Shown: one piece after another, positions 8,221-51,146 of the stretch
How the letters are laid out: every line of letters begins with the position of its first letter
Numbering within the stretch: the stretch's first letter is position 1
Virus record (IMG/VR): IMGVR_UViG_3300037010_002844
Coordinates: 128,001-192,000 of that record
Source: a virus
DNA: 64,000 nucleotides
Direction: 5' to 3' (one strand)
The notes under the pieces: model-generated
The model's database searches: none
The model's input: the letters and a program-made list of their open reading frames with translations, nothing else
Told to the model about the DNA's origin: nothing
Program-made: the position numbers and the translations under genes

Positions 8221-8221
8221 C

Positions 8222-8452
8222 TCAACCGCTCTTGCTCGGCTTCAGAAGCCCGACTTGAGACCCAAGAATGGCCCTCGAAAATTCTTCTTTTACTAGACGG
8301 TGTAGCTCCTGTTCGGTAATGCGAGATACACGCGGGTCGGACACAGACTCAGCGAGCGGTACGACCTCAGTGGGCACGAACCCCTCATCACGCAGCTGCA
8401 ATGCTGCCTCTCTGATCAGCTCGCGGAGCCTATTCGGAGAAATGAGTCGCAT
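8222..8452 (-). CDS. small protein, N-terminal motif family member (MRLISPNRLRELIREAALQ)
   Basis: 76 aa, in tandem with its paralogs between the sheath and tube genes. Confidence 0.55.
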   Translation of the reverse strand: MRLISPNRLRELIREAALQLRDEGFVPTEVVPLAESVSDPRVSRITEQELHRLVKEEFSRAILGSQVGLLKPSKSG

Positions 8453-8802
8453 CAGCCGTGCTTACCAACATGGGCCCAAGGATCCTTCGTCAAGGCCGTG
8501 CTTTGGGGATTGCCAAGCCACTTCATCACAGCATCGATGTTGGACTCGATCTGAGTGATTGCCCTCAATAGCTTCTGCGCCTTGTCCATGACGTCGCTGC
8601 CCGGGCCAGCATTCTGCAGCAACTCAGAGATCGCCTTCTTGGCACCCGCCTTGCCGAGCGCCTGTTTAGCAGACGATAGACTCCCGTGGAGCGCCTGCAG
8701 AGGAGCCTGGACCTTGCCTTGTTCCATCGTGATCTCGTCGAGCTCCTGCTCTTCAAGTGTCTCACGGATGATCTGACGGAGCTGCTTTTGGGTGATCTTC
8801 AT
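8452..8802 (-). CDS. small protein, N-terminal motif family member (MKITQKQLRQIIRETLEE)
   Basis: 116 aa. The N-terminal 16 aa are conserved with its paralogs and the C-terminus is divergent. Confidence 0.6.
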   Translation of the reverse strand: MKITQKQLRQIIRETLEEQELDEITMEQGKVQAPLQALHGSLSSAKQALGKAGAKKAISELLQNAGPGSDVMDKAQKLLRAITQIESNIDAVMKWLGNPQSTALTKDPWAHVGKHG

Positions 8803-8828: not shown

Positions 8829-9041
8829 TCAGGGCGCGCGCGCGACAATGTCCTCAAATCGAGAACGCTCGAAAGGCCCGTCGCCCAGGGCTTCTGCAGT
8901 CTCAAACGTCATCCTGTTGACCATGTTCAAAACGCGAGACTTGAGCGTGGCCGCGAAGGCGGCCGACAGGGTGCTGATCAACTCAGCCCTGCCGGCTTCT
9001 TCCTTGATGATCTTACGCAGCTTTTGTGAAGTGATCTTCAC
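8829..9041 (-). CDS. small protein, N-terminal motif family member (MKITSQKLRKIIKEEAG)
   Basis: 70 aa, first of the tandem family, directly after the sheath gene. Confidence 0.6.
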   Translation of the reverse strand: MKITSQKLRKIIKEEAGRAELISTLSAAFAATLKSRVLNMVNRMTFETAEALGDGPFERSRFEDIVARAP

Positions 9042-28325: not shown

Positions 28326-28340
28326 TCCGCAGCATAACTA

Positions 28341-34402: not shown

Positions 34403-34774
34403 TGGTGGAGGCGCCCGGAATCGAACCGGGGTCCGTAACAGATCCTCTGAGGACCTCATCCACAGGCTTGGTCCGTCTTGTTGCTCAACCTCCGGACGGG
34501 TCTAGCGACGCGAAATTTAGCGAGCTGGTCACCAACTCGACACTACGTTTTACGTCCAGTGCTTTGACGTGTTCCGCTTAACGTCCGGTTCCCCGACGTT
34601 TTCCCTGGCTTTCTGTTTCTAGGCGCCAGGACCCCATTCCTCAGGCCGCGAGGGCGAGAGGAGCAACACCATTGTCGTTGGCGTTTATACGTCACATGGG
34701 TTTTGAACTGGTCCCTCGTGCACCAGTGCCTGCAGTCTACAGTCTCAATGCCACGTCGAAGCCTAGTCGCCCCC
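34403..34774 (-). ncRNA. ssrA: tmRNA (ssrA), one-piece, about 372 nt
   Basis: Minus-strand RNA starts GGGGGCGACUAGGCUUCGACGUGG (compare E. coli GGGGCUGAUUCUGGAUUCGACGGG). It ends ...GGACCCCGGUUCGAUUCCGGGCGCCUCCACCA, a T-arm plus a 7-bp acceptor stem with a G3:U70 wobble. The internal tag ORF after ...GUAUAAAC reads GCC AAC GAC AAU GGU GUU GCU CCU CUC GCC CUC GCG GCC UGA = ANDNGVAPLALAA (34641..34682), ending in the canonical ALAA. Confidence 0.9.
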
Positions 34775-35217: not shown

Positions 35218-35817
35218 TCAGCTCCGGCCCTGGAGCCTGTATGTCGTGTCGACAGTCAGGAGCTTCGTCCACTGCTTCGGGAACTTGGGAACGTTGACTG
35301 TGATCCAGTCGTGATTAACGTAGAGATCAATCGATCTCCCATGACGTCGAACGAAGCCCACGTCCTCGTACTCGGTGTAACCGTCGAGCACTACATCGAC
35401 CTGGTCGCCTTCCACGTGTTCAAATTCGAGTGACTGAGAGTTGTCGGTCTTGACGACCGGCAGTGCATGCAGCACGGATGCCGAGATCGTCTCTTCCACG
35501 TTAGGCAGGGAACTATCATCTTCCGCCTCTTTGGCGACGTCTTCGTAGACCTCGTCCTCATCCTCATCGTCCATGATGAGGCTGCCATTTGGCTTGGACT
35601 TCAGGCGCACGCGCTCTTCGGAAACGTGACAATCATCGCTGCACTCGTGGTCGCACTCGTCAACATCATCTTCAACATCAAGGATAAAGTCGTTGAGCCG
35701 ACCACGAAGATTGCGAACACGCTCGGTAATCGTTGACGATTCAACCAGCGACCGTGTCTGTTCGTAGTGAAACAGTACCTTCGCCAAAAAGAGCGCCTCT
35801 ACCTTAGTCAGTCTCAT
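35218..35817 (-). CDS. hypothetical acidic protein
   Basis: 199 aa, with an Asp/Glu-rich central region. Confidence 0.35.
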   Translation of the reverse strand: MRLTKVEALFLAKVLFHYEQTRSLVESSTITERVRNLRGRLNDFILDVEDDVDECDHECSDDCHVSEERVRLKSKPNGSLIMDDEDEDEVYEDVAKEAEDDSSLPNVEETISASVLHALPVVKTDNSQSLEFEHVEGDQVDVVLDGYTEYEDVGFVRRHGRSIDLYVNHDWITVNVPKFPKQWTKLLTVDTTYRLQGRS

Positions 35818-35889
35818 GTTTGCCTCTCAACGCCGCAAGGCCGGGAACCCGTAGGCACCCGGCCGCAGCAATGCACTTCCCTTACGGGA

Positions 35890-36147
35890 TTAGCGCGACT
35901 TGTTGGTCGCGCTGTAGTGCTTGTGCAGGAGGCGGTACATGGTGCGCGCCTCGGCACCCGTCAACCGCAGCGCACCTTCCGGGAAGTCGATGAAGACCGA
36001 CGTCGCGTTCGTGCGAGGGTTGGTCGACGCCGCGAACAACATTGCACCTTCGTCACGAAGGACGGTCTCGGTCCGGATGTTGCCCTTGCGGTCCTCACGG
36101 CTGTTGATGCGTGCGTTGCGGTTCGTCGAGATGTTGGATCGGCTCAT
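35890..36147 (-). CDS. hypothetical protein
   Basis: 85 aa, Arg/Asn-rich N-terminus. Confidence 0.3.
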   Translation of the reverse strand: MSRSNISTNRNARINSREDRKGNIRTETVLRDEGAMLFAASTNPRTNATSVFIDFPEGALRLTGAEARTMYRLLHKHYSATNKSR

Positions 36148-36255
36148 GGGATAATCTCCTTAGGCAGGTTGATTCCGTGCCCGTAGTAGAACATTACCCG
36201 CCCAAGTGGATCATGTACACGTCACAAAATCATTTCAGATCTTTGGATCATTTAT

Positions 36256-36723
36256 TCACACATCTCGGCCAGGGTTAGACACCGTCCGATTATCAGAAGA
36301 TTTTTCTAGGGGCCTTCTAATAAAGCCATAGAGGTACTTGGCGGCCTCGTCGAGCTGCAACTGGAAGAGTTGCCACCAGACGTTTCCGAGAATGTCGGCA
36401 CGTTCCTTGCCCAAGGTTTCCTTGACTTCAGCCTTGAAGTTTGTGTAGTCGATTTCGAGAGCACACTCTGCAACGACTCGGGACCACTCCTCGCGCCACA
36501 CGGCGACGCGGTACTTGTAGTCCGTGCCGCAGTCCTCCTCAATCGGAGATGAATTGACCTCGTAGGTCTCAATGAGACGCACCAAATCTTCTCGCACTCG
36601 TGTGCGAACCCAGATGATGCGCTCGTCCTTTTTGTCCTGAACGGCACTGTAAAAACCGTCCAACGTGAATAGCCACATACAGTTCAATCGTATTCCAGCG
36701 TCCTGAGCAATTGCACTGTACAC
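36256..36723 (-). CDS. hypothetical protein
   Basis: 155 aa, immediately downstream of the major capsid gene. Confidence 0.35.
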   Translation of the reverse strand: MYSAIAQDAGIRLNCMWLFTLDGFYSAVQDKKDERIIWVRTRVREDLVRLIETYEVNSSPIEEDCGTDYKYRVAVWREEWSRVVAECALEIDYTNFKAEVKETLGKERADILGNVWWQLFQLQLDEAAKYLYGFIRRPLEKSSDNRTVSNPGRDV

Positions 36724-36744
36724 AATCGTTAGTGCTTAAACAGG

Positions 36745-36770
36745 CGAAGGCCCGCGTTTGCGGGCCCTCA
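36745..36770 (-). terminator. terminator-like GC hairpin after major capsid gene
   Basis: ggcccgc (36749..36755) / gcgggcc (36760..36766), a 7-bp stem with a 4-nt loop. On the minus strand it is followed by TTCGCCTGTTT. Confidence 0.4.
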
Positions 36771-36795
36771 AGCCTTAGGATTTCCCTAGTGAACG

Positions 36796-38697
36796 TCAGA
36801 TGACGTTCATGTCCAACACTGTGACGGTCCCGTAGAAGTCCGTGCGGACCATCTTCTTGCCGTATCGGGTCATGACACCCTTGCGCGGCGTGAAGTCTTC
36901 CGGCGCAAAAATCGTCGGGGTGACGATCAGTGGCACGTACGGGGCGTACACGTAACCCGTCTCGAGATAGCTGCCGCCCTTGTAGCCGATCAGGATCTTG
37001 TTGCGGGGGAAGTACGGGTCCTTGTAGACCGTGAAGCGGTTGGACACCGTGCCGATCGCTTCCGCACCAATGGTAAACGGAGAGCCAACCTGTCCCTCGC
37101 CATCGATCGAGAACTTCGGCTTGTACAGCGTGGAAGCCTCGAGGATGGTGCAGACGTCCGGGCCGGTGACCATAAAGTTGGCCGAGCCGCGAAGGGTCTT
37201 ACGGTGAATGGTGTTCGCCACGTCGATGATCGTCTCGATCAACGTCTCGTACCACTCGCGGACCGTGCCCGTGAATTGCGGGCCGATACTCAAGGAGCTC
37301 GCCAGCTGCTGACGGTCACCCGTCAGCTTGTTCACGAAGCGGCCCGGCGAACGCGACCAGAAGAAGTTCGCGCCGTTGGCCTGAGAGACGAGATCATTCA
37401 AGATCTCGCGGTCGATCTCGAGAGCGATCTGCTCCGAAAGGATGCTCGTCAGCTCGACCTCAGCGTCCATCGAGTGGTACGCGTTGAGGTCCTGTGCGAG
37501 TTCAGGCGACCAGCGAGCGCGGAGCCTGCGGGTTGTCGCGGTGATTGCGATCGACTCGATCTTGATATCGATCTCGGGGATGGCCGGAGCCGGGGTCACC
37601 GAGAAGTCCGTCTCGAAGGAGGGAACAGTCAAGGTCGCGCCCGAGCCACCATCGACCATGAGGGCGTCGGCGATCGCCATCGAAACCTTCTGCGTCGCCG
37701 TGTTCAGCGTTGGAACCGAGCCGCCGTTCGACAGCTTCAGCACGAACTGAATGTGCGAACCATTCAGCGGGTTCGGCGTGAAGACCGAGCCGTTCCAGTC
37801 ACCGCGCTTGTTCAGACGACGGAGGTTCAGCAGGCCCTTGCCCGACTGGTAGGAGTCACCCCACTCAACGGCGCCGTTGTTCGCCTGGAAGCCGAAGAGA
37901 GCGATCTGCTCCGGAGCAAGGAAGTCACCCTTCGGGATCTGGGCTGCGATTGCCGCGACCGAGAGGTGGACGAAGGTTACATCCAGGAGGTTGCTGCCCA
38001 GGTCGACCTCAACCTGCGGATCGAACTGCAACATGCGGGCGTTGGTGCCCGAGAAGTCCGTGCTCGAGGCCACGATGCCGCCGGCGGCCCAAGCGTTGTT
38101 GGCACCGGTCCATGCGCCAAGGTCGAGGTTCGAACCCGAGACACCCAGCGAGGCCGAGTGCACCTTCGAGTAACCGACATTCACCAGGTCGTACATACCA
38201 CCCGTGGCGAGTGATCCAGACTGGATGCCCTTGCCGGTCGGGTTGTTGTAGATCGACTGGCCACGCTGGTAAGTCTCGTAGGCCGAGGAGTTACTAAGCT
38301 GCGAGCCAGCATCACCACCAACGTTCGAGCCGTAGGTGTAATCGAGATAGAAGATCAGACCAGACGGTAGGCTCATCGGCTGAATCGAGACAAGCTCGTT
38401 TGCAACGAGGCCACCGAAGACGCGGCGGACGATCGGGAAGGCGATGTTCGAGAAGCCCTGGATCTGACCCGAGGAAGCGACAGCGCCGCCGCCAGTGGAC
38501 AGGGAGTTCGACTCCTTCAGGACCTGGGCAGCCTGGTTCTCCAGGAGCTGCGCCATCGTCTCGCGCTTGAAACCGTCGAGACCGCGGAGCAAGCCAGTAC
38601 GGCTCCACTTCTCAACAAGACGGGCACGCTCAGCACCGACGTGCTTCTCGCGGATGCCCTGGGCCAGCTGGTCCAGTGTAAAAAACTTTGAAGACAT
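36796..38697 (-). CDS. major capsid protein (T4 gp23-like)
   Basis: VSIQPMSLPSGLIFYLDYTYG vs T4 gp23 GVQPMNSPTGQVFALRAVYG. SPELAQDLNAYHSMDAEVELTSILSEQIALEIDREI vs gp23 SIELAQDLRAVHGMDADAELSGILATEIMLEINREV. GYKGGSYLETGYVYAPYVPL...TRYG vs gp23 GYKGPNEMDAGIYYAPYVAL...TRYG. Confidence 0.9.
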   Translation of the reverse strand: MSSKFFTLDQLAQGIREKHVGAERARLVEKWSRTGLLRGLDGFKRETMAQLLENQAAQVLKESNSLSTGGGAVASSGQIQGFSNIAFPIVRRVFGGLVANELVSIQPMSLPSGLIFYLDYTYGSNVGGDAGSQLSNSSAYETYQRGQSIYNNPTGKGIQSGSLATGGMYDLVNVGYSKVHSASLGVSGSNLDLGAWTGANNAWAAGGIVASSTDFSGTNARMLQFDPQVEVDLGSNLLDVTFVHLSVAAIAAQIPKGDFLAPEQIALFGFQANNGAVEWGDSYQSGKGLLNLRRLNKRGDWNGSVFTPNPLNGSHIQFVLKLSNGGSVPTLNTATQKVSMAIADALMVDGGSGATLTVPSFETDFSVTPAPAIPEIDIKIESIAITATTRRLRARWSPELAQDLNAYHSMDAEVELTSILSEQIALEIDREILNDLVSQANGANFFWSRSPGRFVNKLTGDRQQLASSLSIGPQFTGTVREWYETLIETIIDVANTIHRKTLRGSANFMVTGPDVCTILEASTLYKPKFSIDGEGQVGSPFTIGAEAIGTVSNRFTVYKDPYFPRNKILIGYKGGSYLETGYVYAPYVPLIVTPTIFAPEDFTPRKGVMTRYGKKMVRTDFYGTVTVLDMNVI

Positions 38698-38747
38698 TGT
38701 CTTTTTCTCCGTGACTTTCAGTTGATCAGATATCGTTCATGCACCAA

Positions 38748-40751
38748 TCACTTGATGCCAGCGAGGCGTGCCCATCGATCCGTCTCGTAGCCCTCATCGA
38801 GCTTAGTCGAGGCGGGGCGAGTTGCCCGTGAGGCCGAACCGATGACCTTGCGGCCGGCGGACTCTACCAGAGGACGGGAAGTGCCTGCCAAAGTCTTGGT
38901 CAGGCTCTCGTAGATGAGCTTGGCCTCACGGAGGCTCTTCGCCTCATCGAGCCGCTCGATGATCTCAGCCTTCTGCTTGCGCGAGAGTGCCTCGTTCTGG
39001 AGCAACTTGTTCGTGAAGACCAGCTTCGCGTTGAACAGATTCGTTTCTGCCAACTTGTTGCGGAGGTTTGCGTCGGCCTTTCCTTCCGCGGGCCGGATCG
39101 GGCTGCCATTCAGGCGAGCACCATTGCGAGACGCGACTTCCGCCAGCGTCTTCGTCATCTTCTTGACACGCATCACCGACTCGGTGAAGCGGCCGTGCAG
39201 GGCAGCGTGCTCCTTCTTTAGGGCAGCAACCTTACGTGAATCCTTCTTTGCCGTCGCACGAGTGGCTTCCTTCTTCAAGGCAGCAGCGCGGGTCTTAATC
39301 CTCTCCTGCAGGCGCTTCTCGAAGCCGACGCGACGCTTCAGCGCCTCCATCGTTGCACCTGGCTCGCGCGATTCCTTGCCAGACTCAGCGCCCGGACCCA
39401 TCGAAGCCGGAGCGACATTGCCGCCCGCCTCACGAGAATCCTCGGCCTGATCCATTCCGAAGTCCGTCTCATCAAGCTGGTCATCGTCCTGGTCGTCGTC
39501 GCCTTCATCCATCGTCAGTTCGCCATCGATCTCGTCGAGCTGGTCGTCATCCTCGTCACCCTCATCGGACTCCGTGGTGACCTCACCGTCGAGCCAGGGA
39601 TCGCCTTCCGACTTGCCGCCGCCGAACTGATCAATGACTGCGTCAACGCCGGCGCCCTTGGTGGACGGGACCGCATCCTCGCGGAGGGACTTCATCCGAG
39701 CAATCTCACGGCGGAGCATGCTCTCGTCAATTTCGACAATCGTGTCGTCGCTGAGCCGGCGTGACTCCATCTGGTCATCCTGACCCTGGTCCTCACCGCC
39801 CATGTCGAGGTCGCCAAGATCCATGTCCTCGCCACCCTCTTCATCGCCTTCTTCGCCGCCTTCTTCGCCGGCGCCGAGGTCAAGATCTTCACCGCCCTCG
39901 CCGTCTTCGTCTTCGCCAGTGATCAAGTCAACACCGACCGAATCAAGGTCAATCTCATCGGGCAGGCCAGTGAGCTTCAGCGTCACATCGCCTTCATTCA
40001 TCAAATCTTTGAGGCTCTTCTTCGACATCTTCTGCTCCTGGAGCTTGCTGAGTTCTTTGAAGTACGTTTCGAGTTTCGCTTCGTATGAACTCTTCCGTGC
40101 GGGATCCGTTACCGCCTCCTGCACGTAGTCATACATATTCTCCACTCGTGAAATCATATGAGTGATTTGCTCTGAGTAACCACGAGACTCCTTGACCACC
40201 TTATGGGCGGCCTTGAATGCTTGCAGTTGCTCACCGAGCCGGTAGAGACCGGCTTCGAGTTCCTTGATGATTCCTGACTTGGTTGCCTTGGCGACCGGCG
40301 TCAAGGCTTCCACGGATTCAAGGCTAAGCTCGTATTCATCTCCATCGACTGACGTAGGCTGCCCAAAGACAGGTGCAGGGACGGCTGCACCGATGGGGTC
40401 TGTCGCCAACGCATCAAGGTCGAGCGTGACCTTTCCTTCTGCATCAGGGACTGAGATGGCAGCCGCCGCCGTGCCACCATCGCCGGCTGCAGGAACCGCG
40501 CCGACGGGAGCAGTGTCAGTGACCAAGTCGCCCGGCTTGTCCGGGGTGCCCGGAGCACCTGAAACGATTTCAACGACTTCGACATCATCGTCATCATCGA
40601 AATCACCGTGCTCCTTGAGGAGCTCCTTCTCGATCAGATCCCGAATCCTCGGGGTCACTGCCTCGATCAGGGTACGCCTAGCATTATCCTCAGCGACTTC
40701 CTTCAATCGCTTGGCATCTGCTAGAGCCTCTTCGTACAGCTGCTTTGACAT
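38748..40751 (-). CDS. prohead scaffolding protein (gp22-like, acidic coiled-coil)
   Basis: 667 aa, extremely acidic (DDDDDVEVVE, EEGGEEGDEEGGEDMDLGDLDMGGEDQG), coiled-coil. It lies between the protease and the MCP, as in the T4 head module. The N-terminus contains I/L-x-E protease-site-like motifs. Confidence 0.55.
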   Translation of the reverse strand: MSKQLYEEALADAKRLKEVAEDNARRTLIEAVTPRIRDLIEKELLKEHGDFDDDDDVEVVEIVSGAPGTPDKPGDLVTDTAPVGAVPAAGDGGTAAAAISVPDAEGKVTLDLDALATDPIGAAVPAPVFGQPTSVDGDEYELSLESVEALTPVAKATKSGIIKELEAGLYRLGEQLQAFKAAHKVVKESRGYSEQITHMISRVENMYDYVQEAVTDPARKSSYEAKLETYFKELSKLQEQKMSKKSLKDLMNEGDVTLKLTGLPDEIDLDSVGVDLITGEDEDGEGGEDLDLGAGEEGGEEGDEEGGEDMDLGDLDMGGEDQGQDDQMESRRLSDDTIVEIDESMLRREIARMKSLREDAVPSTKGAGVDAVIDQFGGGKSEGDPWLDGEVTTESDEGDEDDDQLDEIDGELTMDEGDDDQDDDQLDETDFGMDQAEDSREAGGNVAPASMGPGAESGKESREPGATMEALKRRVGFEKRLQERIKTRAAALKKEATRATAKKDSRKVAALKKEHAALHGRFTESVMRVKKMTKTLAEVASRNGARLNGSPIRPAEGKADANLRNKLAETNLFNAKLVFTNKLLQNEALSRKQKAEIIERLDEAKSLREAKLIYESLTKTLAGTSRPLVESAGRKVIGSASRATRPASTKLDEGYETDRWARLAGIK

Positions 40752-40771
40752 GCTACCGTTTCCCTGCTGCA

Positions 40772-40779
40772 GTAAGTAT
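40772..40779 (-). promoter_or_regulatory. conserved upstream element GATACTTAC (gene orientation) ahead of scaffold gene
   Basis: Plus-strand gtaagtat, about 21-28 nt upstream of the ATG at 40751. Confidence 0.4.
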
Positions 40780-40801
40780 CATCCCGTGATGCAGTTTCAC
40801 A

Positions 40802-41365
40802 TCACTTGAACTGTTCCAGACCCGACTTGGGATCTGGCATAGATGTGATGGTGCCTGCGTCGCCCAGGGTATTCGCATCATGGACCTTGCCACTCGTGGC
40901 CGTCGGGGAACGAGTTCCCGTGTTCGGTCCGCCGGGCACGTAGGTGGGCTTAACATCAGAAGACTTGATCTTCGGATTTGCCGACTTGTCGACGCCGTCT
41001 GTCTTGCCCGGCCCAGGAGATGATAGGTCAGGAACGTAGGAGTTCGCAGGATCTCCTGCGTTGACCCAAGCGTCATCAGCACCCTTCGATGTGTCAGGAG
41101 CCTGAATCGATGCCTTGGCGCCACCGTAGGTGAAATCAACACCATCCGGGAAGTGCTGCGCATCGCCAGCCTGAATGCCTGAAGTAGCGGCAGCACGGAG
41201 GATGTCGTTACCCTCCTTGGCCGCGTACTTGTAGGCGTCGGCCTGGTCCACGCCGTAGAACGGTGGCGACGTCGTCGAGTCCCCCTTGAAGAGGTTCTCA
41301 AAAAACGTCCTCCGCGGTGACTTCGGCGGAACGTATGTCGTGTACTTTCCCTTACCAGCAGGCAT
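40802..41365 (-). CDS. hypothetical head-module protein
   Basis: 187 aa, Gly/Pro/Asp-rich. The upstream gene ends 16 nt before its start. Confidence 0.35.
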   Translation of the reverse strand: MPAGKGKYTTYVPPKSPRRTFFENLFKGDSTTSPPFYGVDQADAYKYAAKEGNDILRAAATSGIQAGDAQHFPDGVDFTYGGAKASIQAPDTSKGADDAWVNAGDPANSYVPDLSSPGPGKTDGVDKSANPKIKSSDVKPTYVPGGPNTGTRSPTATSGKVHDANTLGDAGTITSMPDPKSGLEQFK

Positions 41366-41380
41366 CTTCGTTCTCCTTGA

Positions 41381-41632
41381 TCAGACGCCCTTACGGATCG
41401 ACTTCATAACCCGGGCCCTGGTCTCGACGATCTTGTTGAGACGAGCGCGAAGGCGCAACTCTTCGACCTTCAACGCCTTGGCGTAGTCGATCTTCTTCTC
41501 AAGAGCGTCAGCATACTCGTCCGCATCCACCTCGTCGGTGTCCTTGGCGCGCTTCTCCGGGTCTTCCATGTCCCCGAACTTACCGACTTCTTCTTCAATG
41601 ATCTTCTTGAGTAGCTTTGACGTGAGCTTCAT
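41381..41632 (-). CDS. small protein, N-terminal motif family member (MKLTSKLLKKIIEEEVG); prohead-core-like position
   Basis: 83 aa. The N-terminus aligns with the tandem family at 8089..9041. The gene is located inside the head module between the protease and the scaffold, like T4 gp67/gp68. Confidence 0.55.
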   Translation of the reverse strand: MKLTSKLLKKIIEEEVGKFGDMEDPEKRAKDTDEVDADEYADALEKKIDYAKALKVEELRLRARLNKIVETRARVMKSIRKGV

Positions 41633-41686: not shown

Positions 41687-42160
41687 TTACGCGGTTTTCT
41701 TGGCCGGTGCATCCATGAAAGCCAGGTTGGCCCACTTTGACGCCGCCTCTTCACCAAAAACCTCTTCAGGTGAGCCAACGAACTTTTCTTCCTGCACGAC
41801 GCGGGACTGGGTGCCTTCAGACGGACGAGCCGCTGAGTCTCCGGCGCCCAACATCTTGGGCAAGGTCGTCATGGCGGTGTCTGCCAGAATGTCTGCCATC
41901 AGCGCGTTGCCGCGTGCCTCAGCTTTGATGGCCTGAGCCAGTGCCTCAGTCGGGCGTCGCCCGTTGGGCAATGTCTGCATGTCAAGCGGCGACTTTCCTC
42001 GAGCGACCGGACGCTGAGGAGCGCGAGATTCAGTGACGGGCAGCGTCATTCCCATCGAAGCGCCAGCACCCGATCCCAGGCCTTCCTGCAAGATCTCAAC
42101 GAGGCACTCTTTGACGATTGCCTTCAGTTGCTGACGTGACATTTTGCCTGTTCCAGACAT
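41687..42160 (-). CDS. hypothetical head-module protein (possible prohead core protein)
   Basis: 157 aa. N-terminal ...QQLKAIVKECLVEILQEG carries an (L/I)xE motif. Ala/Gly-rich. Confidence 0.35.
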   Translation of the reverse strand: MSGTGKMSRQQLKAIVKECLVEILQEGLGSGAGASMGMTLPVTESRAPQRPVARGKSPLDMQTLPNGRRPTEALAQAIKAEARGNALMADILADTAMTTLPKMLGAGDSAARPSEGTQSRVVQEEKFVGSPEEVFGEEAASKWANLAFMDAPAKKTA

Positions 42161-42162: not shown

Positions 42163-42666
42163 TTACCCCATCGCCTTTTTCGAAAGATTTTTGTGGGCCA
42201 TCCTGCGCTCCATTGGGGAGGCACGATCGAGCATCAAGACACCATTTAGGTGGTCGACCTCGTGCTGCACAATTCGCGCCAAGAAACCGTTGAGGAAGGC
42301 GTGTTGAGTCTGCCCGGAGACGTCCTGGTACTCGATTTCAATCTCCGTCGAACGAGCAACATTGACAGCAACTCCAGGAATCGACAGGCAACCCTCTGGC
42401 CCGAACTCGACTTCCTTGGAAGACCAGACAATCACGGGATTGACCATGAAGATCATCTCACAAGCTTGTTCACCTGCTGACGGATCGACAACAATCAAAC
42501 GTTGATTGATGCCAACCTGTGGAGCGGCTAGGCCAACGCCGCGTGAGGCGTACATGGTCTCGGCCATCTTCTCGAGTTGGATCTTGAGCTCGGGCCCAAA
42601 GTCATCGACACGGTCGCAGGTCGCCTGCAAGCCCTGGTCGGGGAAGAGAACGACCTGCATGATCAA
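42163..42666 (-). CDS. def: peptide deformylase
   Basis: All three PDF motifs are present: GVGLAAPQVG, EGCLSIPG, QHEVDHLNG. Confidence 0.9.
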   Translation of the reverse strand: MIMQVVLFPDQGLQATCDRVDDFGPELKIQLEKMAETMYASRGVGLAAPQVGINQRLIVVDPSAGEQACEMIFMVNPVIVWSSKEVEFGPEGCLSIPGVAVNVARSTEIEIEYQDVSGQTQHAFLNGFLARIVQHEVDHLNGVLMLDRASPMERRMAHKNLSKKAMG

Positions 42667-43073: not shown

Positions 43074-43736
43074 TTACCTCTTGTACGACAGGATGTCGTT
43101 TAGAACCCGGTCAATCCGGTCGCTGCGGTTGAAGATCCGCTTCAGCTCGCCATCGCTTAGCTGGCGACCTTCTGGAATCATGAAGGCACCAGGCGTTGAA
43201 GGCTCAGAAACGTAGTCCCAACAGATCAACTGAAAGTCATCCTGAACCACGTAGTAGTCGCCATCCTTCCGAGTTGACCCCACGCCCCGCGAGGAGATAC
43301 CCAACTTGACGTTGCTCTCGGCCAACGACTGCAGGATCTGACCCGAGGGGGTATTCAGGATCTCGACGGTTCCCATCACTGTTCCGTTCTCGAGGTAGGC
43401 CTCACGGACAATGTGGGAAACGTTCTTCAGGTTGATGACCGAGGAATCAGGGTGATCGAGCTCACCAAGAGCACGATTCTCAATGATGAACTTCTGGTAG
43501 TTCCTGACCTCGCGCTCCAACACACGGAGCGGATAGATTCGGCCGTTCTGGTTTAGGGTGTCTGCCTTCTGCAGGATTCCCTTCATCAGGATCTTCTTGA
43601 CAGCGGGCACCTTGACAGCGTTGCCCTGAGAATCTTCAGTAATGGTCTCAGGCTTGACGACCTCGGTGACCAGCTTGTAGTCAAAGATGTCGTAGGTATT
43701 CAGTAGCCTCTGGTTGCTCATGACATCACTCCTCAC
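43074..43736 (-). CDS. prohead core protease (T4 gp21-like)
   Basis: QNGRIYPLRVLEREV ... GELDHPDSSVINLKNVSH vs T4 gp21 LNGRIYPKEVLDNAI ... GEFDHPDSHSINLKNVSH. Confidence 0.9.
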   Translation of the reverse strand: MRSDVMSNQRLLNTYDIFDYKLVTEVVKPETITEDSQGNAVKVPAVKKILMKGILQKADTLNQNGRIYPLRVLEREVRNYQKFIIENRALGELDHPDSSVINLKNVSHIVREAYLENGTVMGTVEILNTPSGQILQSLAESNVKLGISSRGVGSTRKDGDYYVVQDDFQLICWDYVSEPSTPGAFMIPEGRQLSDGELKRIFNRSDRIDRVLNDILSYKR

Positions 43737-44580
43737 CGTTTAGTTCGGTACTCAACTTGGTGTAAAGCATGAAGCGAGTCACTGTCTCATCATTGACCAC
43801 ATCGAGGGTCTCGGAGATCAGGCGCTCTCGGGCCTCGTTCAGCTTTTCATTGACGTACTTGTTAGCGTTTGCTGCAGTGTACTCGTCCATTCGTTGCAAC
43901 AGGTCAGACTTGATCTCTGCCAGTTTCTTGTGAATGACGGTCGGATCATCGTGAGCGGCCGAAAAGACATACGCCTTGACGAGTGACTTCTGATCATCGT
44001 TCAGGACACCAGCGTACTTCTCGTTCAACTTCTTTGTCATGACCTTCATCAACAGGCGAGCAGTTCCGTTAGACTCTTCACTGATGACATGATCATCAGC
44101 CTCTGGTCGTTCAGACACCAACCACTGGACCAACTGGTCCTCGTAGGTCGCCATCCTCGACAAGTCCTTGTCGGTCGATCGCCAATCATTGAGCAGCGTC
44201 TGCACGGTGGCATACATCCTGTACTCATTGATCTGTTGATCATAGAAGTTGTCATCTTTGATCGAGTAGTTGATGTGCTTGATGAGCAGCGACTTCTCGC
44301 GGTCCAGAGTCTGGATGTCGTGAGATCGGGCCGCCGAGCGCGCCTCGTTCAGGATGTTAGCAGCGACTGCCTCTGACGTCACCTTCGTCTTAATCAACGA
44401 ATTGACGAGCCTAAACTCTCGGTACAGCTCAGAACCAGGCTTGAAGTGCTTTCGGAGGATCTTCAACGCCACGGCAGACTTCTTCTGGTTGCCCTCGACG
44501 AGGGCGGTCGAAATGGTGCGGACAAGGAACTCGTAGAGTAGTCCAGCATTACGCTTCTTGTTGTGGCCCTTGCTGCTCAT
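43726..44580 (-). CDS. hypothetical head protein (prohead core / gp67-gp68 position)
   Basis: 284 aa, lying between the portal and the protease. The N-terminus contains LVEG (an L-x-E site). Confidence 0.35.
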   Translation of the reverse strand: MSSKGHNKKRNAGLLYEFLVRTISTALVEGNQKKSAVALKILRKHFKPGSELYREFRLVNSLIKTKVTSEAVAANILNEARSAARSHDIQTLDREKSLLIKHINYSIKDDNFYDQQINEYRMYATVQTLLNDWRSTDKDLSRMATYEDQLVQWLVSERPEADDHVISEESNGTARLLMKVMTKKLNEKYAGVLNDDQKSLVKAYVFSAAHDDPTVIHKKLAEIKSDLLQRMDEYTAANANKYVNEKLNEARERLISETLDVVNDETVTRFMLYTKLSTELNGEE

Positions 44581-47500
44581 GACTCGTCATCCTCGTTGTC
44601 ATCATCGATGATAAGTACATCGCCTTCGTTAATGGCGCTGCCTGTCAGACCCGGTTCGATCGACTCATCAATCTCGATGTTGATCTCTTGGTCCTCTTTT
44701 ATCAAACCATTCTTCGATCCGCGCTCACCAGGGAACTTCTTTTCCCAACTTAGCAACGCAGCGACCACGTCGCCAGGAAGCCGCTGCTGACGTGCGACGC
44801 TTTCGCCGAATGGGTCGCTGACGACAGACTTCAAGAAGTCGGTATCGTAAGGATCCTCCATCGCTCGATTGTCAGTCGAAGTCATCTTCCTGAAGTCAGG
44901 CATGTGCGTCTTAGACGGTCCGTGCGTCAAGTGACGGCTACGGTTGTAGAGCACGCGGTCAAGCTGCTTCTGAGCCTTGACTGGAATCTCGACGTCCTTC
45001 ATGGCGCCGACGCGGAGCCCAAATGTCTCATCGTCATCATTGTCGTCAGCTGACGTCAGGAGCTGAACACCAGGCGTGGTCTCCTCTTCTGGTTCCTCAC
45101 CTGCGTTTTCCTCGGGAGGCGTCTCTTCTCCGCCTGCGGGTTCCTCACCGCCTCCACCTTCATCGCCGCCGCCAAAGAGGTCTTCGCCTCCCCCGCCGCC
45201 ATCCCCTCCAGCACCCGCGCCGGACTCGATGGCTGCGTCAACGACCTTATCTTTCATGCGATTCTTGTCGATCTGCTTGCACTCCTGATCGTTGAGGCCC
45301 CAGATCTCCTTGCGGACAAAGTCCTTATCAATGAAGCCTTCAGGGGCCGAGCCGCCGATCTCAAACTTGGCACGCCACAGTTCTAGCTTCTGTTGCTGTG
45401 CGACAGTCGACGGGTTGGACAGATGCAACGTAAAGTTCTGCAGATCATCACCGTCATACCCGTGTGCATAGAGGTGGATGATCGCCAGCTTGTTGAGCTC
45501 GGCAAGGATCGTCTTCTGAATGACAGCAATGGTACGCGAGAACCTGATGTCCTCCTGCGCCAACGTGGCCTTGCTGCTAAGCATCTCATCGTAACCCAAG
45601 TAGGCGCGTGGGATCTTCAGAGCAGCAAACAGCTTCTTCTGAATGTAGGCCACGTCCTCGACGGCGGCAGTGTTCTGGCCTCCCGCGAGGGTTTCAATGC
45701 GAGTTCCAGACTCTTGGCCACGAACTGGGATGAAGTAGTCCTCATCGACGCTCTGAAACGCAAATATTAGTCCTACACCACCACCACCACCATGAGGTGA
45801 TTGTGCACCTTTCGCAGCATTTTCACCACCCACGGCAAGATTGTGCCATCGATCAACGGTAACACTGTACACATCTTCAGTTGTATCGATGAGCTCAACA
45901 GAAATGACGACGTGGTTGTTCGCACCGTCAGAAGCAACAACGCCGGTGTCAACGTTGTTGACGTACTGACGACCCAAGGCCGCAGGATGGTGCGCAGCCC
46001 AAACTGCCTTCCAGTTAAGGTAATCGGCGATGATGAACTTACCGACGACGTTTTTATGCAGCGATTTCGCGAGATCGTGAGCCAGATGAGCGTTCGTTGC
46101 TGCGTAGAGCTTCATGAACGTTACGTCGGACTTCAACCGTCTCAGGAACGCATCGAGCCCCTCGAACCTACGAAGCGATCTGATGACGTTGATAACGTAG
46201 ACCTGGCACTCAGGCGACCAAACATAGCGCATGTTCTGTCGGGCACGCTCCCTTCGTTCAGGGTCAGCCCACATCGTAGACATCGCTTCAGAACGTTTGA
46301 CGTAATGCTCAGCGTTCGTTATCAACTGCAGGTTGCCAGTTGAGTTGTTGAGCTTGTCAAAGTTGACGTGATGAATTGTCTTTCCCTGCTGTGAGATGTG
46401 CCCGTTCCGATAGACCTCGAGCCCGAACGCATGAGCCGCGATCAACTCGTGGGTAAAGATGCGTGTTCCGAACGATGGATCGAGCACCTTTTCGTAACAG
46501 TGCTTGTCAACTTCAGAAACTTCAGCGCCTGACATCGGTGCATATGTAACGTGCAACGGCATCAAGCTGTCGCCCGAACGTAGATCCTTCGCTTTAACGT
46601 GAGAACCATCACGAAGCATCATCCTATGTTCAGGTGTGACATTGATGACGCCGCCGTCGTCCAGCGTCACCCTGACAAACTGTTTCGTAGTACCTGACTT
46701 CCCGGCCCAGATCACCTTGCCGGGTACCAACCTACCCCCCGCTTCGAGATCAAGGGAATAAGTCTCATGGTCTCGGCGCCCTTCATTCCACTCCTTGACT
46801 AGCTCATCGATCCGCAGCATCCTACCATCCAACAATGGTATCTGAACGTTCGCTGCGAAGCACAGTGGATTGTACCTGAGGTCCACACGACCAGAAGAGC
46901 GATCAATGACCTGATTCGTCCTGAGGTTCTTCCTCTGCTCTTCAACATAAAGAGGCACGTCCTGCGCTGGAACGTTGGCAACGTCGATGTAGAAGACGCG
47001 GCGTTCAGGTGCCCTGACGACGCGGTACACCAACATTGCATCTTCGATGAGGATCAACTGACGCCAAATGCGGCGGGCAGGCTCAATGATCGATGACCCG
47101 TAAGGCAAGAACATGTCGTTGCCCAAGAGCCGAAAGTGAGTGATCTCCCAGTTCTCGAGGACTCGATTACCTAGGGTGACCCAGCGATACCTGACCGCAA
47201 ACGGATCGTCACGATCGTAGTTCTCTTCGCGCTCGATCTCGTTGACAGGGATCGGGAACGCTGAGACGACTCCGTACGTTGGAGAAACGTCATTATAGAG
47301 GAAGAAGTCGCCGTACTTAACAAGATTGCGCGCCCAGGATCGCAGGTTGAACTCGGTGTTCAACGTATTGTAGAAAAGGTCCTCGAGCACCTCGCGAATC
47401 TTCTCATTGTCCGAGTAAATGTGGAGGACGCGGCCTTTCTCATCCTGTGCACACGTTTCGTCGGCATAGATGTCAAGAGCAGCCGCGATCTCAGGAGTAT

Positions 47501-49088
47501 TGTGCGAGATCACACTATCGGTGGCAAAGTTCTTGTACCCGTCAACGGTGAGGTCGTAGAGAGGGATCTCACCGACATACTCAACGGAAACTACCTTACA
47601 GTTGTTGTAAGTCTCCTGAAAGTCACTAAACTTCTTGAAGCCATTCTGCGACAACCTGGAGATAATCGTGTTCTTGTTGGCGCCAAGCTTTTCGGCGAGA
47701 CGAGGCAACGTCACGCTGGGTGTATATGCATCACAGATCTGTTGGAACGTCAGTGAATTACCGTTCGAACCTCGTGGACGACCGCCCTTTCGGACGCTCT
47801 TAATCTGATTGACGGTCACTTCCTCGTCGTGATACCCCATTGTTGAACGCAACTCTGTCCACGACATCCGGGCGCGGCGGGCCAAAAACTTGTCAAGTAC
47901 GTTGACAGTGCAACCGAGCTTAATGCACAAAGAACGCTTCGTGTCACCAGCAGTCATCGAAGACTTCAATAGCTCGAGGCTCAAGTCCCGTGTCAGTAGA
48001 CCGGGTCGGTTGTTGATCATAGAATCAGCTTGACCGCCAGCATATGCCGCAACAAATTTATTGAACGTTGAGAATCCGTGGGTCGCCAATCGTTCATAGA
48101 TCAGGTTCCATGTGACATCAAGAGCATTTGCAATCGCCGGCATGCTGAAACCAACACGTTCAGCAGTCTCTAGGATTCGAGCAAAAGTCACATCCCTGCG
48201 AGCGCCAGGAGCATTGTCACGCATCCGAGCTGCATGGTTCTTCTTGAACTCTTCGATCCACTCACGGTTTTCGGGTGCCCACTTCACCCCGTTGTTGATC
48301 GCGGCGTGGTAACTGTCATGGGCAGACTTCGTCATGATCCTGAGATTTTCAGGACGATTATCAGTCTTAATGAAGTTGATGTGGTGGACAACCTCATCTT
48401 CGTTGAGCTGACGACCGGCAACCCACTCAGCGATCAGTTGGTGCTCTTTGGTCCAACCGCGGAACCTATCGTCCATCGTGTAGATCCACGAGTAGCCAAG
48501 GGTGCCTTCTTTGGCATCAGCAAAGATGTCTTTGCGGTAGAAGGGCATCATTGCATCGCCGGGTTTCAGGTCCTCAACACGACGGTATGTACCGTCACGA
48601 AGCATCAGTCGATGTTCCGGTGATGCAACAATCTCTTTTCCATTATCAAATTTGATCTTCCAGGCACTATCGACACAGGTCTGACGAGCCTGTTTACCGA
48701 ACGCCGGAACGATGCGCTTCAAATTGTGATCGTACGAATAGACAATGAAGATGTGATCCGGATTTTTCTCACACTCTTGCGCTAGCTCACCTATAGTCTT
48801 GAAACCATCTGAGGTTGCGATCTTAGTGTCAATCGCAAGTGAATACTCCATTTCTTGAAAGTCCTGATAGCGCATCAAGCGCTCGCTCAGGTTGTAGGCA
48901 TTTGCCGTGATGGTCGCGTAGGTCGGCGCCAGCGACTTCTGAAAGAGCAACGTGCCTGACGACTTAGTCTTGTCAGCGACCGCGATCGTCGTGTCGGCGG
49001 TGCGGATCTTCTTCTTGATGACAGGACCACTTCGAAACAGTCGCGTCAGTCGTCGGAAAAGGCTTTGAGGTGCTTCTTTTTTTGCCAT
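44577..49088 (-). CDS. portal protein (T4 gp20-like) interrupted by two intein-like insertions; long acidic Gly/Glu-rich C-terminal extension
   Basis: 1503 aa. It sits immediately upstream of the gp21-like protease, at the gp20 position. Two Hint domains carry HNH modules (see the mobile_element features). The extein segments total about 550 aa, plus a roughly 250-aa acidic tail (GGDGGGGGEDLFGGGDEGGGGEEPAGGEETPPEE...). Confidence 0.7.
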   Translation of the reverse strand: MAKKEAPQSLFRRLTRLFRSGPVIKKKIRTADTTIAVADKTKSSGTLLFQKSLAPTYATITANAYNLSERLMRYQDFQEMEYSLAIDTKIATSDGFKTIGELAQECEKNPDHIFIVYSYDHNLKRIVPAFGKQARQTCVDSAWKIKFDNGKEIVASPEHRLMLRDGTYRRVEDLKPGDAMMPFYRKDIFADAKEGTLGYSWIYTMDDRFRGWTKEHQLIAEWVAGRQLNEDEVVHHINFIKTDNRPENLRIMTKSAHDSYHAAINNGVKWAPENREWIEEFKKNHAARMRDNAPGARRDVTFARILETAERVGFSMPAIANALDVTWNLIYERLATHGFSTFNKFVAAYAGGQADSMINNRPGLLTRDLSLELLKSSMTAGDTKRSLCIKLGCTVNVLDKFLARRARMSWTELRSTMGYHDEEVTVNQIKSVRKGGRPRGSNGNSLTFQQICDAYTPSVTLPRLAEKLGANKNTIISRLSQNGFKKFSDFQETYNNCKVVSVEYVGEIPLYDLTVDGYKNFATDSVISHNTPEIAAALDIYADETCAQDEKGRVLHIYSDNEKIREVLEDLFYNTLNTEFNLRSWARNLVKYGDFFLYNDVSPTYGVVSAFPIPVNEIEREENYDRDDPFAVRYRWVTLGNRVLENWEITHFRLLGNDMFLPYGSSIIEPARRIWRQLILIEDAMLVYRVVRAPERRVFYIDVANVPAQDVPLYVEEQRKNLRTNQVIDRSSGRVDLRYNPLCFAANVQIPLLDGRMLRIDELVKEWNEGRRDHETYSLDLEAGGRLVPGKVIWAGKSGTTKQFVRVTLDDGGVINVTPEHRMMLRDGSHVKAKDLRSGDSLMPLHVTYAPMSGAEVSEVDKHCYEKVLDPSFGTRIFTHELIAAHAFGLEVYRNGHISQQGKTIHHVNFDKLNNSTGNLQLITNAEHYVKRSEAMSTMWADPERRERARQNMRYVWSPECQVYVINVIRSLRRFEGLDAFLRRLKSDVTFMKLYAATNAHLAHDLAKSLHKNVVGKFIIADYLNWKAVWAAHHPAALGRQYVNNVDTGVVASDGANNHVVISVELIDTTEDVYSVTVDRWHNLAVGGENAAKGAQSPHGGGGGVGLIFAFQSVDEDYFIPVRGQESGTRIETLAGGQNTAAVEDVAYIQKKLFAALKIPRAYLGYDEMLSSKATLAQEDIRFSRTIAVIQKTILAELNKLAIIHLYAHGYDGDDLQNFTLHLSNPSTVAQQQKLELWRAKFEIGGSAPEGFIDKDFVRKEIWGLNDQECKQIDKNRMKDKVVDAAIESGAGAGGDGGGGGEDLFGGGDEGGGGEEPAGGEETPPEENAGEEPEEETTPGVQLLTSADDNDDDETFGLRVGAMKDVEIPVKAQKQLDRVLYNRSRHLTHGPSKTHMPDFRKMTSTDNRAMEDPYDTDFLKSVVSDPFGESVARQQRLPGDVVAALLSWEKKFPGERGSKNGLIKEDQEINIEIDESIEPGLTGSAINEGDVLIIDDDNEDDES
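45801..46862 (-). mobile_element. intein 2 in portal gene (HNH type), C-terminal junction uncertain
   Basis: Begins CFAANVQIPLLDG (block A) with block B VINVTPEHRMMLRDG. The HNH module is HHVNFDKLNNSTGNLQLITNAEHY. Block G-like VYSVTVDRWHNLAVGG is present. No canonical terminal HN+(C/S/T) was found, so the end is placed approximately (residue 1083-1096 of the ORF). Confidence 0.5.
47499..48842 (-). mobile_element. intein 1 in portal gene (about 448 aa, HNH homing endonuclease type)
   Basis: Begins SLAIDTKI (block A with a Ser1 nucleophile) and has block B VASPEHRLMLRDG. The HNH module is HHINFIKTDNRPENLRIMTKSAHDSYH. Blocks F/G read VEYVGEIPLYDLTVDGYKNFATDSVISHN, followed by extein +1 Thr. Confidence 0.65.
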
Positions 49089-49165: not shown

Positions 49166-49477
49166 TCAAACGTCCCCTTCACCCTTCACGGGCTTCAAAG
49201 AAACCTTCTTTGGTTCGACCTTCTTCTTCTCGACGTAGGATCCAGGCGTACTTACCATGTCCTCGAGAATCTTTTCCATCTGTGCAAGATGAGGCGTCAG
49301 CGCATTGATCATCGGCCCGTTGGCTGACTTCTGAAATACCTCGACCGCCGCCAACAGCTTGGAGGCGCCATTGACGACTTCACGAATTGATGCATGGTCG
49401 ACGGCCTCGTTGACCGAGGAAGACAGTTCCTCAGCAATGATCTTCCGAAGACGTGGTAGGGTAATCTTGTTGCTCAT
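49166..49477 (-). CDS. small protein, N-terminal motif family member (MSNKITLPRLRKIIAEEL)
   Basis: 103 aa. It has the conserved upstream element CAATACTTACAC and an AGAAGGT RBS. It lies between the terminase and portal genes. Confidence 0.55.
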   Translation of the reverse strand: MSNKITLPRLRKIIAEELSSSVNEAVDHASIREVVNGASKLLAAVEVFQKSANGPMINALTPHLAQMEKILEDMVSTPGSYVEKKKVEPKKVSLKPVKGEGDV

Positions 49478-49517: not shown

Positions 49518-51146
49518 TCACCGTAGCAACCAGCTAAAATCGCTCACGTCAGCATTCTTGATCTGCGATGGATCGCGGGGCTTGTGAACGTTGTAAGGAT
49601 TAACGCCCCTGATGTTAGGATTGATCAGCGGCTGTGCTGACTGAATGTCACCTGGCATCTGCGCTGAGTCCCTGCGCGCGACCTGCGTGGCCTTCAACAT
49701 GGCCATCGCCATCTCATGAGCCTGTTCATTGACTCCTGAACCGCCGTTGGTCAGCCAAATGCCAATCGCTAGACTCATAATCAAGTCGTCATGACTGTCA
49801 CGGGTGGCCTGAGCCTTGGACCCCTGCCAGATGAAGGCCTGCATCTGATCGTAGAAGCGTTGCGAGTAGATTTTGACAATCTTGTTGCGGATGATCTCCT
49901 CGAGCTTCGCCAGGATCTGCGGACGAGTGTTACCTTGCGTCTCAAAGCCAGGAATTGCCTCTGGGTCGCTCGAGATGTACTCGAACATGTCGCCTGTCAT
50001 ATTGCGATAATACAGACGCTTGTAGCCGATGTCTCTGAGTCTGACAGCCGTCATGTAGCCAAAATTGTTACGCTCTGGGCACAGCAAGGCAGTGTTATAC
50101 TTCTTGCCGTAGTCAGCTAGAAGGTCGGCCAACTTGTCAGGCGGAATCTTGCCCATGTATTCTGCGACGACTTCACAATCATTTACGTCAATGACGTGCA
50201 TCGTCGAATAGTCGGCAGCGTCTCCACGGGCCACGTCAGATGAAATAACATACTTCTTGCCCGGCTCAGGATCAGACCAGATCCAGACAGCATTCTGCGG
50301 TCCTTCTTTGCGAATCGGACTGTCGATCATGCTCCTGAGATAGTCCATCTCCGTGGGTTGCAGGAATGTGTCACCTGACGAGATGAAGTCGCAAAGGAAC
50401 TCCTGGGCAACTTTTCGCTTTGGCAGGTTCTTGGTTTCCTTGTCAAACCATGCCTGATCGTGCTCGGGATGAACGTGCCATGGAAGATTGATAGTGTTGA
50501 ACTCATTGACCTGTGCTATTGCGTCGGTCCACAACTTGTAGTACATGCCGCCGACGCCGTTAGGCGTGGAAATAATGATCGCAGAACCGCCCGTGGAGAT
50601 AGTCGGATAGAGACCGGTCCAGATCTCTTCAAAGTCTCTGATGAATGCGGCCTCATCGACGATGAGAAGTGACAAGGCCTCCGAACGACCAGCGTCTGGT
50701 GAGGTCGGTACGGCCGCGATGACTGACCCATTGGCAAACGTGATCTGTTGCTTGGTCGATTCGAACTTGGTGAGGAGCAACCACTTGGGCAGGCCGTCAA
50801 GGATTGTCTTCACCTTCTTGATGAAGTTCATGGCGGTCTGCAACTTGGTAGCGATGACCAGGACGTTCTTGTCCTTCTTGAAGATCGCGTACCAGACGGC
50901 GTAGGCCGCGGTGACGGTTGACAGGCCCAGCTGACGTGACTTCAGGACGATGTTGAAGCGATTCTCTTCAAATGCCTTGATGCAGTCATCCTGAAAGTAG
51001 TAGGTGTCGAACGGGATCAGGCCCCTCTTGGGGTGCTGGATCTTCGCATAGTTCTTCATGAAGTAGACGGCGTTTTTGCCGCACTTCAGAATCTCGCGGA
51101 CCTGTTCTTCTCTACCGAGCGGACCGTTGGACGTGGCAATTGACAT
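49518..51146 (-). CDS. terminase large subunit (T4 gp17-like)
   Basis: ENRFNIVLKSRQLGLST vs gp17 NRFNACNLSRQLGKTT (Walker A region). LLIVDEAAFI (Walker B) vs gp17 IYIEDCAFI. IIISTPNG vs gp17 IITTTPNG. The Walker A is the deviant type with an N-terminal Lys (KSRQLGLST), lacking the canonical GK(T/S) Lys. Confidence 0.9.
   Translation of the reverse strand: MSIATSNGPLGREEQVREILKCGKNAVYFMKNYAKIQHPKRGLIPFDTYYFQDDCIKAFEENRFNIVLKSRQLGLSTVTAAYAVWYAIFKKDKNVLVIATKLQTAMNFIKKVKTILDGLPKWLLLTKFESTKQQITFANGSVIAAVPTSPDAGRSEALSLLIVDEAAFIRDFEEIWTGLYPTISTGGSAIIISTPNGVGGMYYKLWTDAIAQVNEFNTINLPWHVHPEHDQAWFDKETKNLPKRKVAQEFLCDFISSGDTFLQPTEMDYLRSMIDSPIRKEGPQNAVWIWSDPEPGKKYVISSDVARGDAADYSTMHVIDVNDCEVVAEYMGKIPPDKLADLLADYGKKYNTALLCPERNNFGYMTAVRLRDIGYKRLYYRNMTGDMFEYISSDPEAIPGFETQGNTRPQILAKLEEIIRNKIVKIYSQRFYDQMQAFIWQGSKAQATRDSHDDLIMSLAIGIWLTNGGSGVNEQAHEMAMAMLKATQVARRDSAQMPGDIQSAQPLINPNIRGVNPYNVHKPRDPSQIKNADVSDFSWLLR

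Follow-up and report, generated by a model that had tools for sequence, protein, structure and literature searches.

To our knowledge, experimental proof of capsid-targeting sequences is limited to phage T4 and its close relatives, and the capsid-targeting sequences of phiKZ-like phages are of a very different, long form. The internal proteins of T-even phages are diverse and have only their targeting sequence in common (PMC3012670, PMC9026906). For one of them, T4 IPIII, the first 10 residues suffice for capsid targeting, with residues 4 and 7 having a role in targeting and residues 8 and 10 in processing; an aspartate at position 10 blocks cleavage and leaves targeting intact (PMC9026906). 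The T4 capsid-targeting sequence (CTS), which is cleaved by gp21 and found on IPI, IPII, IPIII, and Alt, is carried by unrelated, rapidly exchanged proteins, encoded as variable cargo genes in plastic loci. In the giant phages phiKZ, 201phi2-1, and SPN3US, a gp21-related protease, cutting after Glu, removes propeptides that are mostly longer than 100 residues and end in (S/A/G)-x-E (PMC9026906, PMC5694885). These assignments have mass spectrometry support, and conserved N-termini are found there on diverged paralogs (SPN3US gp53/gp54, PMC5694885).

Here, we describe an N-terminal element of approximately 16 residues (referred to as the tag), with the consensus M-K-(I/L)-T-x3-L-(K/R)-x-I-(I/V)-x-E-E-(L/V/I), in a 64,000-nucleotide stretch of viral DNA (the window; positions 128,001 to 192,000 of IMG/VR record IMGVR_UViG_3300037010_002844). 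Like the T4 CTS, the tag is N-terminal, starts with M-K, has an end of the (F/I)-I-x-E type, and is found on unrelated proteins, some of them variable genes in plastic loci, in a phage that also encodes homologs of gp20, gp21, and gp23.

Head module of the window

Nearly all genes of the window are on the minus strand. The head module contains, in transcription order, the following genes.

49518-51146, minus strand: T4-type large terminase (Pfam Terminase_6N)
49166..49477, minus strand: ORF for the 103-aa leader protein (N-terminus MSNKITLPRLRKIIAEEL; leader profile, 24.1 bits)
44577..49088, minus strand: T4-type portal protein with inteins (Pfam Portal_T4, 1.5e-61)
43726..44580, minus strand: conserved 284-aa protein, between portal and protease, in the same slot in relatives
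43074..43736, minus strand: gp21-type prohead serine protease (Pfam Peptidase_S77, 6e-25)
Between the protease and peptide deformylase genes: 134-aa ORF
41687..42142, minus strand: 151-aa head-module protein (N-terminus MSRQQLKAIVKECLVEILQEGLG), in the same slot in relatives
41381..41632, minus strand: ORF for the 83-aa leader protein (N-terminus MKLTSKLLKKIIEEEVG; leader profile, 29.4 bits)
Between the 83-aa ORF and the scaffold-like gene: 187-aa ORF
38748..40751, minus strand: 667-aa acidic scaffold-like protein, named for position and composition rather than homology
36796..38697, minus strand: gp23-type major capsid protein (Pfam Gp23, 1e-74)

The protease, capsid protein, portal, and terminase had already been recognized in the initial annotation, and the Pfam matches bear this out. 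Both leader ORFs lie at the coordinates given there, on the minus strand (the strand had not been stated), and the N-terminal sequences quoted for them are correct.

The protease, the presumed processing enzyme, aligns to the T4 gp21 structure (5JBL) at 5e-14, and its catalytic positions are occupied by His, Ser, and Asp. Just after its catalytic domain, in 66/66 relatives, it contains the sequence I-P-E|G (aa 187-189; window 43170-43178), a candidate C-terminal autoprocessing site; autoprocessing of this kind has been reported for T4 gp21 and SPN3US gp245 (PMC9026906, PMC5694885). The 284-aa protein, in which several (L/I)xE sites are conserved, had no family match in Pfam and PHROGs searches. 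The scaffold-like protein had no match to Pfam T4_CASP, and its N-terminus is conserved in relatives. In the capsid protein, an N-terminal region of approximately 60 residues is conserved, including RL(V/T)EKW and QVLKE|S.

A search of IMG/VR with the protease returned 481 related stretches; 80 loci were analyzed. Across related loci, the gene order is terL-p103-portal-p284-protease-(p134)-(PDF)-p157-p83-p187-scaffold-MCP, all of these genes being constant except those for the 134-aa protein and the deformylase (PDF), which vary in presence. By capsid protein, the window has no close relative among GenBank phages; the best match, to the uncultured phage LR756508 (484 kb), reaches only 48% identity. 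A 309-kb metagenomic contig encodes proteins identical to the two leader proteins of the head module, and homologs of them are found on contigs of 200 to 357 kb. We conclude that the window derives from an uncultured T4-related giant phage.

Two features of the module deserve mention in their own right. The portal gene has 1,503 codons and shows, within Portal_T4, two matched stretches each for Intein_splicing and HNH_3. The peptide deformylase gene (42163-42666, minus strand) lies between the protease and the core protein genes and is present at that position in about one-third of related loci.

Four window proteins share the tag

Among the 59 window proteins, the strict pattern for the tag matched at 5 N-termini and, in 18,215 residues, at 0 internal positions (mean in shuffles, 0.006). 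Since that pattern was drawn up post hoc, with the sequences already known, an independent profile was built from 183 leaders, all from other IMG/VR contigs, and applied to every candidate N-terminus in the six frames of the window (n = 2,528). The four top-ranking candidates were the two head-module ORFs, at 29.4 and 24.1 bits, and two ORFs at the sheath-tube locus.

8829..9041, minus strand: 70-aa leader protein with a GTG start (32.7 bits)
8452..8802, minus strand: 116-aa leader protein (23.2 bits)

The fifth-ranked candidate reached only 7.9 bits, and the E-values of the window members ranged from 5e-9 to 4e-6, compared to a noise floor of 0.27. The tag family is genuine, and the 83-aa and 103-aa ORFs are members of it, so that the leader previously noticed as common to both stands. 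All four window members are located in structural gene blocks and on the structural strand. At the DNA level, the leaders differ from each other synonymously, and their upstream regions are unrelated; selection thus acts on the protein rather than on the DNA, and a recent duplication is ruled out. On the same grounds, we excluded a DNA or RNA element as the origin of the likeness.

One further head-module protein looked like a member by eye. The leader profile gave the N-terminus encoded at 41687-42142, LKAIVKECLVEILQEG, a score of only 2.9 bits, however, and we ruled out the 151-aa protein as part of the tag family. A longer version of the same ORF (41687-42160) encodes 157 aa, and an identical database protein starts at the 151-aa start. 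This protein is highly conserved over its first 23 residues, which contain three nested (V/L)-x-E sites with Glu in nearly 100% of the sequences, and conservation collapses past the sequence ...L-x-E-G-(L)-G. In the phiKZ/SPN3US group, propeptides with nested sites have been described (PMC9026906, PMC5694885).

The 83-aa and 103-aa proteins

The leader of the 83-aa protein corresponds to aa 1-17 (coded at approximately 41582-41632); the remainder consists of a disordered acidic linker and, C-terminally, a long helix. In the AlphaFold2 model, residues 5-18 are predicted to form a helix, residues 19-43 are of low confidence, and residues 44-82 form a helix with a pLDDT of >95. We found 204 unnamed homologs of this protein, and its slot is unchanged in approximately 60 related IMG/VR loci. 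In relatives, the leader (MKLTsxLLkxIIEEEVaKFG), the acidic linker, and the long C-terminal segment are all retained; since conservation extends over the full length, the leader does not stand out from the remainder of this protein.

Residues 4-19 make up the leader of the 103-aa protein. The gene lies between the large terminase and portal genes, as it does in most relatives covering that part of the module. Both the leader and the helical body are conserved in this family, and the leader site is its only conserved (L/I)xE. AlphaFold2 predicts a helical, hairpin-like structure with a disordered basic tail, in which the tag is part of a helix formed by residues 7-51; a fold search with this model returned nothing below an E-value of 0.28. 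In one related locus (L024, 4343-9133), the 103-aa gene continues in frame through the intergenic spacer into the portal gene, yielding an ORF of 1,596 codons. This is a read-through of the spacer in which the portal gene keeps its own start, and the loss of a stop codon is a more probable explanation than a functional fusion; the read-through was not counted as evidence.

The initial annotation placed the 83-aa gene exactly where the T4 prohead core genes for gp67 and gp68 are found, which is not the case. In T4, the order is 20-67-68-21-22-23, so the gp67/gp68 slot lies between portal and protease and is held here by the 284-aa gene, whereas the position of the 83-aa gene is between those of protease and scaffold. 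With hhalign, the 83-aa protein was matched to gp67 and gp68 with probabilities of only 0.4% and 0.3%, and it had no Pfam GP67 match at E-values up to 0.1, while T4 gp67 itself scored 163 bits. On the basis of Pfam, hhalign, and gene order, we therefore ruled out identity with gp67 or gp68. What the T4 pair shares with the 83-aa protein is that all are small, helical, acidic, and encoded in the head module, and gp67 and gp68 each contain an (L/I)xE inside their first 6 residues. Separately, T4 gp67 contains the sequence IDLIKEE at aa 29-35.

Tagged proteins in related phages

In 109 of the 206 tagged ORFs collected, the start of the motif is 7 residues away from Met1, and positions that had been left free in the selecting pattern are conserved nonetheless: M, K (71%), I/L (86%), and T/S (81%). 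The bodies behind the tag are another matter. When the leader was removed from 166 tagged proteins, 147 body clusters remained. Tagged proteins have a median total length of approximately 100 aa and mostly acidic bodies (median pI, 5.0). In relatives, further tagged ORFs of 81 to 393 aa were found, again with unrelated bodies. One of these proteins, of 340 aa (L008, 18045-19067; MRQTIRRIIKEEAENV...), contains a DxDxT motif and matches Pfam DUF2608 at 1.2e-6; it might be an enzyme cargo.

The interval between the sheath and tube genes (window 7903-9055; loci L085-L164) is particularly variable: among 70 relatives, its length lies between 23 bp and 3.4 kb, and 23 of them have one or two tagged ORFs there, with differing bodies. 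A degenerate DNA pattern of the tag was found in at least 120 IMG/VR stretches among the matches listed, often in tandem runs of 2 to 5 genes. Of 96 loci selected by the tag pattern only, with G+C contents from 26 to 58%, 57 also encode homologs of the window terminase, portal, 284-aa protein, or protease. The protease, scaffold, and capsid genes of LR756508 are flanked, within 41 kb, by more than 20 tagged ORFs; in the corresponding locus (L084; LR756508.1 151913-193517), these form clusters at 492-11753 and 35288-41492. That locus also contains, at 25784-31663, a second set of paralogs of 247 to 281 aa with another common N-terminus (MRLKxxLLKE...).

Cultured phages did not yield the tag: a tblastn search of 50,697 phage records with the 83-aa protein and two consensus tags matched only the uncultured LR756508 and, marginally, one Streptomyces phage at an E-value of 7. 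Likewise, the head-module region of Flavobacterium phage immuto, which is among the closest cultured phages by capsid protein, contains no clear tagged ORFs. In Pfam and PHROGs searches of the tagged proteins, no family covered the tag; subthreshold matches to DEK_C and DUF5760 concerned one tag helix only. The motif strings returned nothing relevant from the literature searched. As judged from these comparisons, hundreds of otherwise unrelated, mostly small acidic proteins in this lineage carry the tag at their N-terminus, as a portable element.

(L/I)xE sites and candidate cleavage motifs

The end of the tag, (I/V)12-x13-E14, follows the gp21 recognition pattern of a hydrophobic residue, any residue, and Glu. 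Sequences of the 83-aa family have Glu at position 14 in 120/121 cases and Asp in 0/121, and Glu at position 15 in 121/121, while E and D do interchange at other acidic positions. In the 103-aa family, Glu is found at the tag site in 50/53 sequences. A preference for Glu at the putative P1 position without Asp fits the specificity of gp21; Asp at residue 10 of the T4 targeting sequence blocks processing (PMC9026906).

The initial annotation also pointed to (L/I)xE strings near the N-termini of neighboring head proteins. All of these strings are present, but they occur against a background of 0.97 sites per 100 residues, and 19 of the 59 window proteins have an (L/I)xE within their first 40 residues, so that single N-terminal sites are at chance level and, on their own, constitute no evidence. 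Of the (L/I)xE measures, only the density over whole proteins exceeded shuffled sequences.

Scaffold-like protein: 22 sites; shuffle mean, 10.0; P < 0.002
284-aa protein: 9 sites; shuffle mean, 3.8; P = 0.01
Capsid protein: 8 sites; shuffle mean, 4.1; P = 0.04
T4 controls: gp22, 16 sites versus 5.8 in shuffles; gp21, 7 versus 2.6; gp23, 8 versus 4.0

The enrichment in the scaffold-like protein equals that of T4 gp22 in degree, and the capsid protein parallels T4 gp23 in the same way. For the capsid protein, LVEKW had been suggested as a cleavage motif; alignment to T4 gp23 favors QVLKE|S instead, and the maturation site is probably this sequence, near residue 60, which would place LVEKW within the putative propeptide. 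The scaffold-like protein additionally contains, at aa 34-44 (window 40620-40652), the sequence RIRDLIEKELL, which is conserved in relatives and resembles the core of the tag.

Comparison with known targeting sequences and propeptides

T4 IPII and IPIII start with MKTYQEFIAE|A, and the tag described here ends in ...KIIAE|E. The likeness is limited to M-K at the start and (F/I)-I-A-E at the end, which is too short for statistics. With approximately 16 residues, compared to 10, the tag is longer than the T4 CTS, and it has no demonstrable sequence homology to it. Other differences are that the residue after the cut is Ala in the T4 CTS and Glu (Cys or Thr in variants) after the putative cut in the tag, that the bodies of T4 internal proteins are basic (PMC9026906) and those of tagged proteins mostly acidic, and that the family of tagged proteins is large, with more than 20 members per 41 kb in LR756508. 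Even so, the tag has the general features of a T4 CTS: it is situated at the extreme N-terminus, has a length between 10 and 20 residues and a gp21-like end, and is found on unrelated cargo in genomes with gp21 and gp23 genes.

Propeptides of phiKZ, 201phi2-1, and SPN3US share with the tag the giant-phage setting and a gp21-related protease, which cuts after Glu in those phages. They belong to another lineage, however, and the tag, with its small size and with I or V at P3, does not fit their type.

Function of the tag

The reading that we favor, on an evenly balanced judgment, is that the tag is a prohead-targeting tag similar to the T4 CTS, used on both fixed head proteins and exchangeable cargo and plausibly cleaved by the gp21-type protease. 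It would direct proteins into the core of the assembling prohead, as the 10-residue CTS does for T4 internal proteins, and would then be clipped off after the invariant (I/V)-x-E by the prohead protease. The 83-aa and 103-aa proteins would be fixed parts of the head module, probably core and portal-proximal components, and the tagged genes of the sheath-tube locus would encode exchangeable cargo. Prohead targeting, a binding partner, and the cleavage itself are the parts of this model that we infer. The gp21-type processing logic proposed at the outset is supported by sequence in part, through the protease, the portable leader at its fixed distance from Met1, the strictly kept Glu, and the (L/I)xE enrichment of the scaffold-like protein; the equation with gp67/gp68 and the single sites in neighboring proteins are dropped. 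Observations that weigh against CTS-like targeting and cleavage are the following: Glu follows the putative cut, while a small residue follows the T4 sites examined; the predicted helix of the tag runs on into the body, as in residues 7-51 of the 103-aa protein; the bodies are acidic, unlike the basic T4 internal proteins; the 83-aa protein is conserved beyond its leader, over the full length; and no cultured phage among those searched has the tag.

The first two of these observations would suit a docking or oligomerization helix that brings proteins into the scaffold core or portal region and is retained, with (I/V)-x-E-E serving helix packing and salt bridges. A helix continuing into the body, as modeled, suits docking no less than it suits a protease substrate, and also in the 83-aa protein, the tag is predicted to be helical (residues 5-18). 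Hydrophobic positions with helical spacing extend beyond the tag, to positions 16, 19, and 20, and the internal look-alike of the tag in the scaffold-like protein also speaks for docking. Against retention are a position 14 that is strictly Glu while neighboring acidic positions swap E and D and the fixed distance from Met1, which is typical of propeptides. An amphipathic helix was rejected as a description of the tag, its hydrophobic moment being not above that of shuffles, and the T4 precedent is one of targeting sequences that are cleaved (PMC9026906). All in all, we regard a retained docking helix as rather unlikely.

A role outside the capsid, with the tag acting as an N-terminal interaction, regulatory, or degradation element of small cytoplasmic proteins (for example, in anti-defense) and occurring in the head module only incidentally, is in our estimation unlikely. 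The small, acidic, and hyperdiverse bodies are reminiscent of many cytoplasmic anti-defense proteins, many tagged genes belong to the sheath-tube locus or to tandem clusters rather than to head modules, and one tag shows the weak likeness to DEK_C and DUF5760 mentioned above. Those Pfam matches are below threshold and cover the helix only, however, and two tagged genes are fixed, and conserved over their full length, in the portal-protease-scaffold-capsid module of approximately 60 relatives. The confinement of all four window members to structural blocks and the structural strand, and the flanking of protease and capsid genes by the tagged clusters of LR756508, likewise argue against such a role. 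Finally, chance, low complexity, or recent local duplication can be excluded as the source of the likeness of the leaders: K, E, and I are abundant in what is a short motif, but the profile E-values and shuffles given above, the synonymous divergence with unrelated flanks, and the retention of the tag across contigs of such different G+C contents speak against it.

Taking the CTS-like reading one step further, the M-K-I-T...L-K-x-I-I-x-E-E tag might be a general capsid import and processing signal of a large T4-related giant-phage lineage that is entirely uncultured, carried by a fixed core and by dozens of cargo proteins per genome, a proposal that we put forward tentatively and consider somewhat short of probable. 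If it is true, all proteins that these phages package, and possibly inject, could be recognized directly by sequence, yielding a list of candidate packaged or ejected proteins, which are likely counter-defense factors, and the tag could be used as a packaging handle. A distinct and readily recognized tag in such a widespread lineage, which has contigs of 200 to 357 kb and G+C contents from 26 to 58%, would extend the T4 principle of a constant address label on exchangeable cargo. While that principle is already known from T4, the tag sequence, the breadth of its use, and the lineage appear to be undescribed. Together, tag and protease would form a protease-substrate pair that is testable with recombinant proteins and requires no phage culture.

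Other features of the window

An ORF of at least 1,412 codons (3-4238, minus strand), with the untagged N-terminus MAGPIDKEQL..., runs off the window start. Two tandem sheath-like genes (9055-12102 and 12226-15240, minus strand) encode proteins of 1,015 and 1,004 aa with similar N-termini. In an otherwise ORF-poor stretch, ARAGORN identified a phage-encoded tmRNA (34403-34774, minus strand) with the tag peptide ANDNGVAPLALAA.
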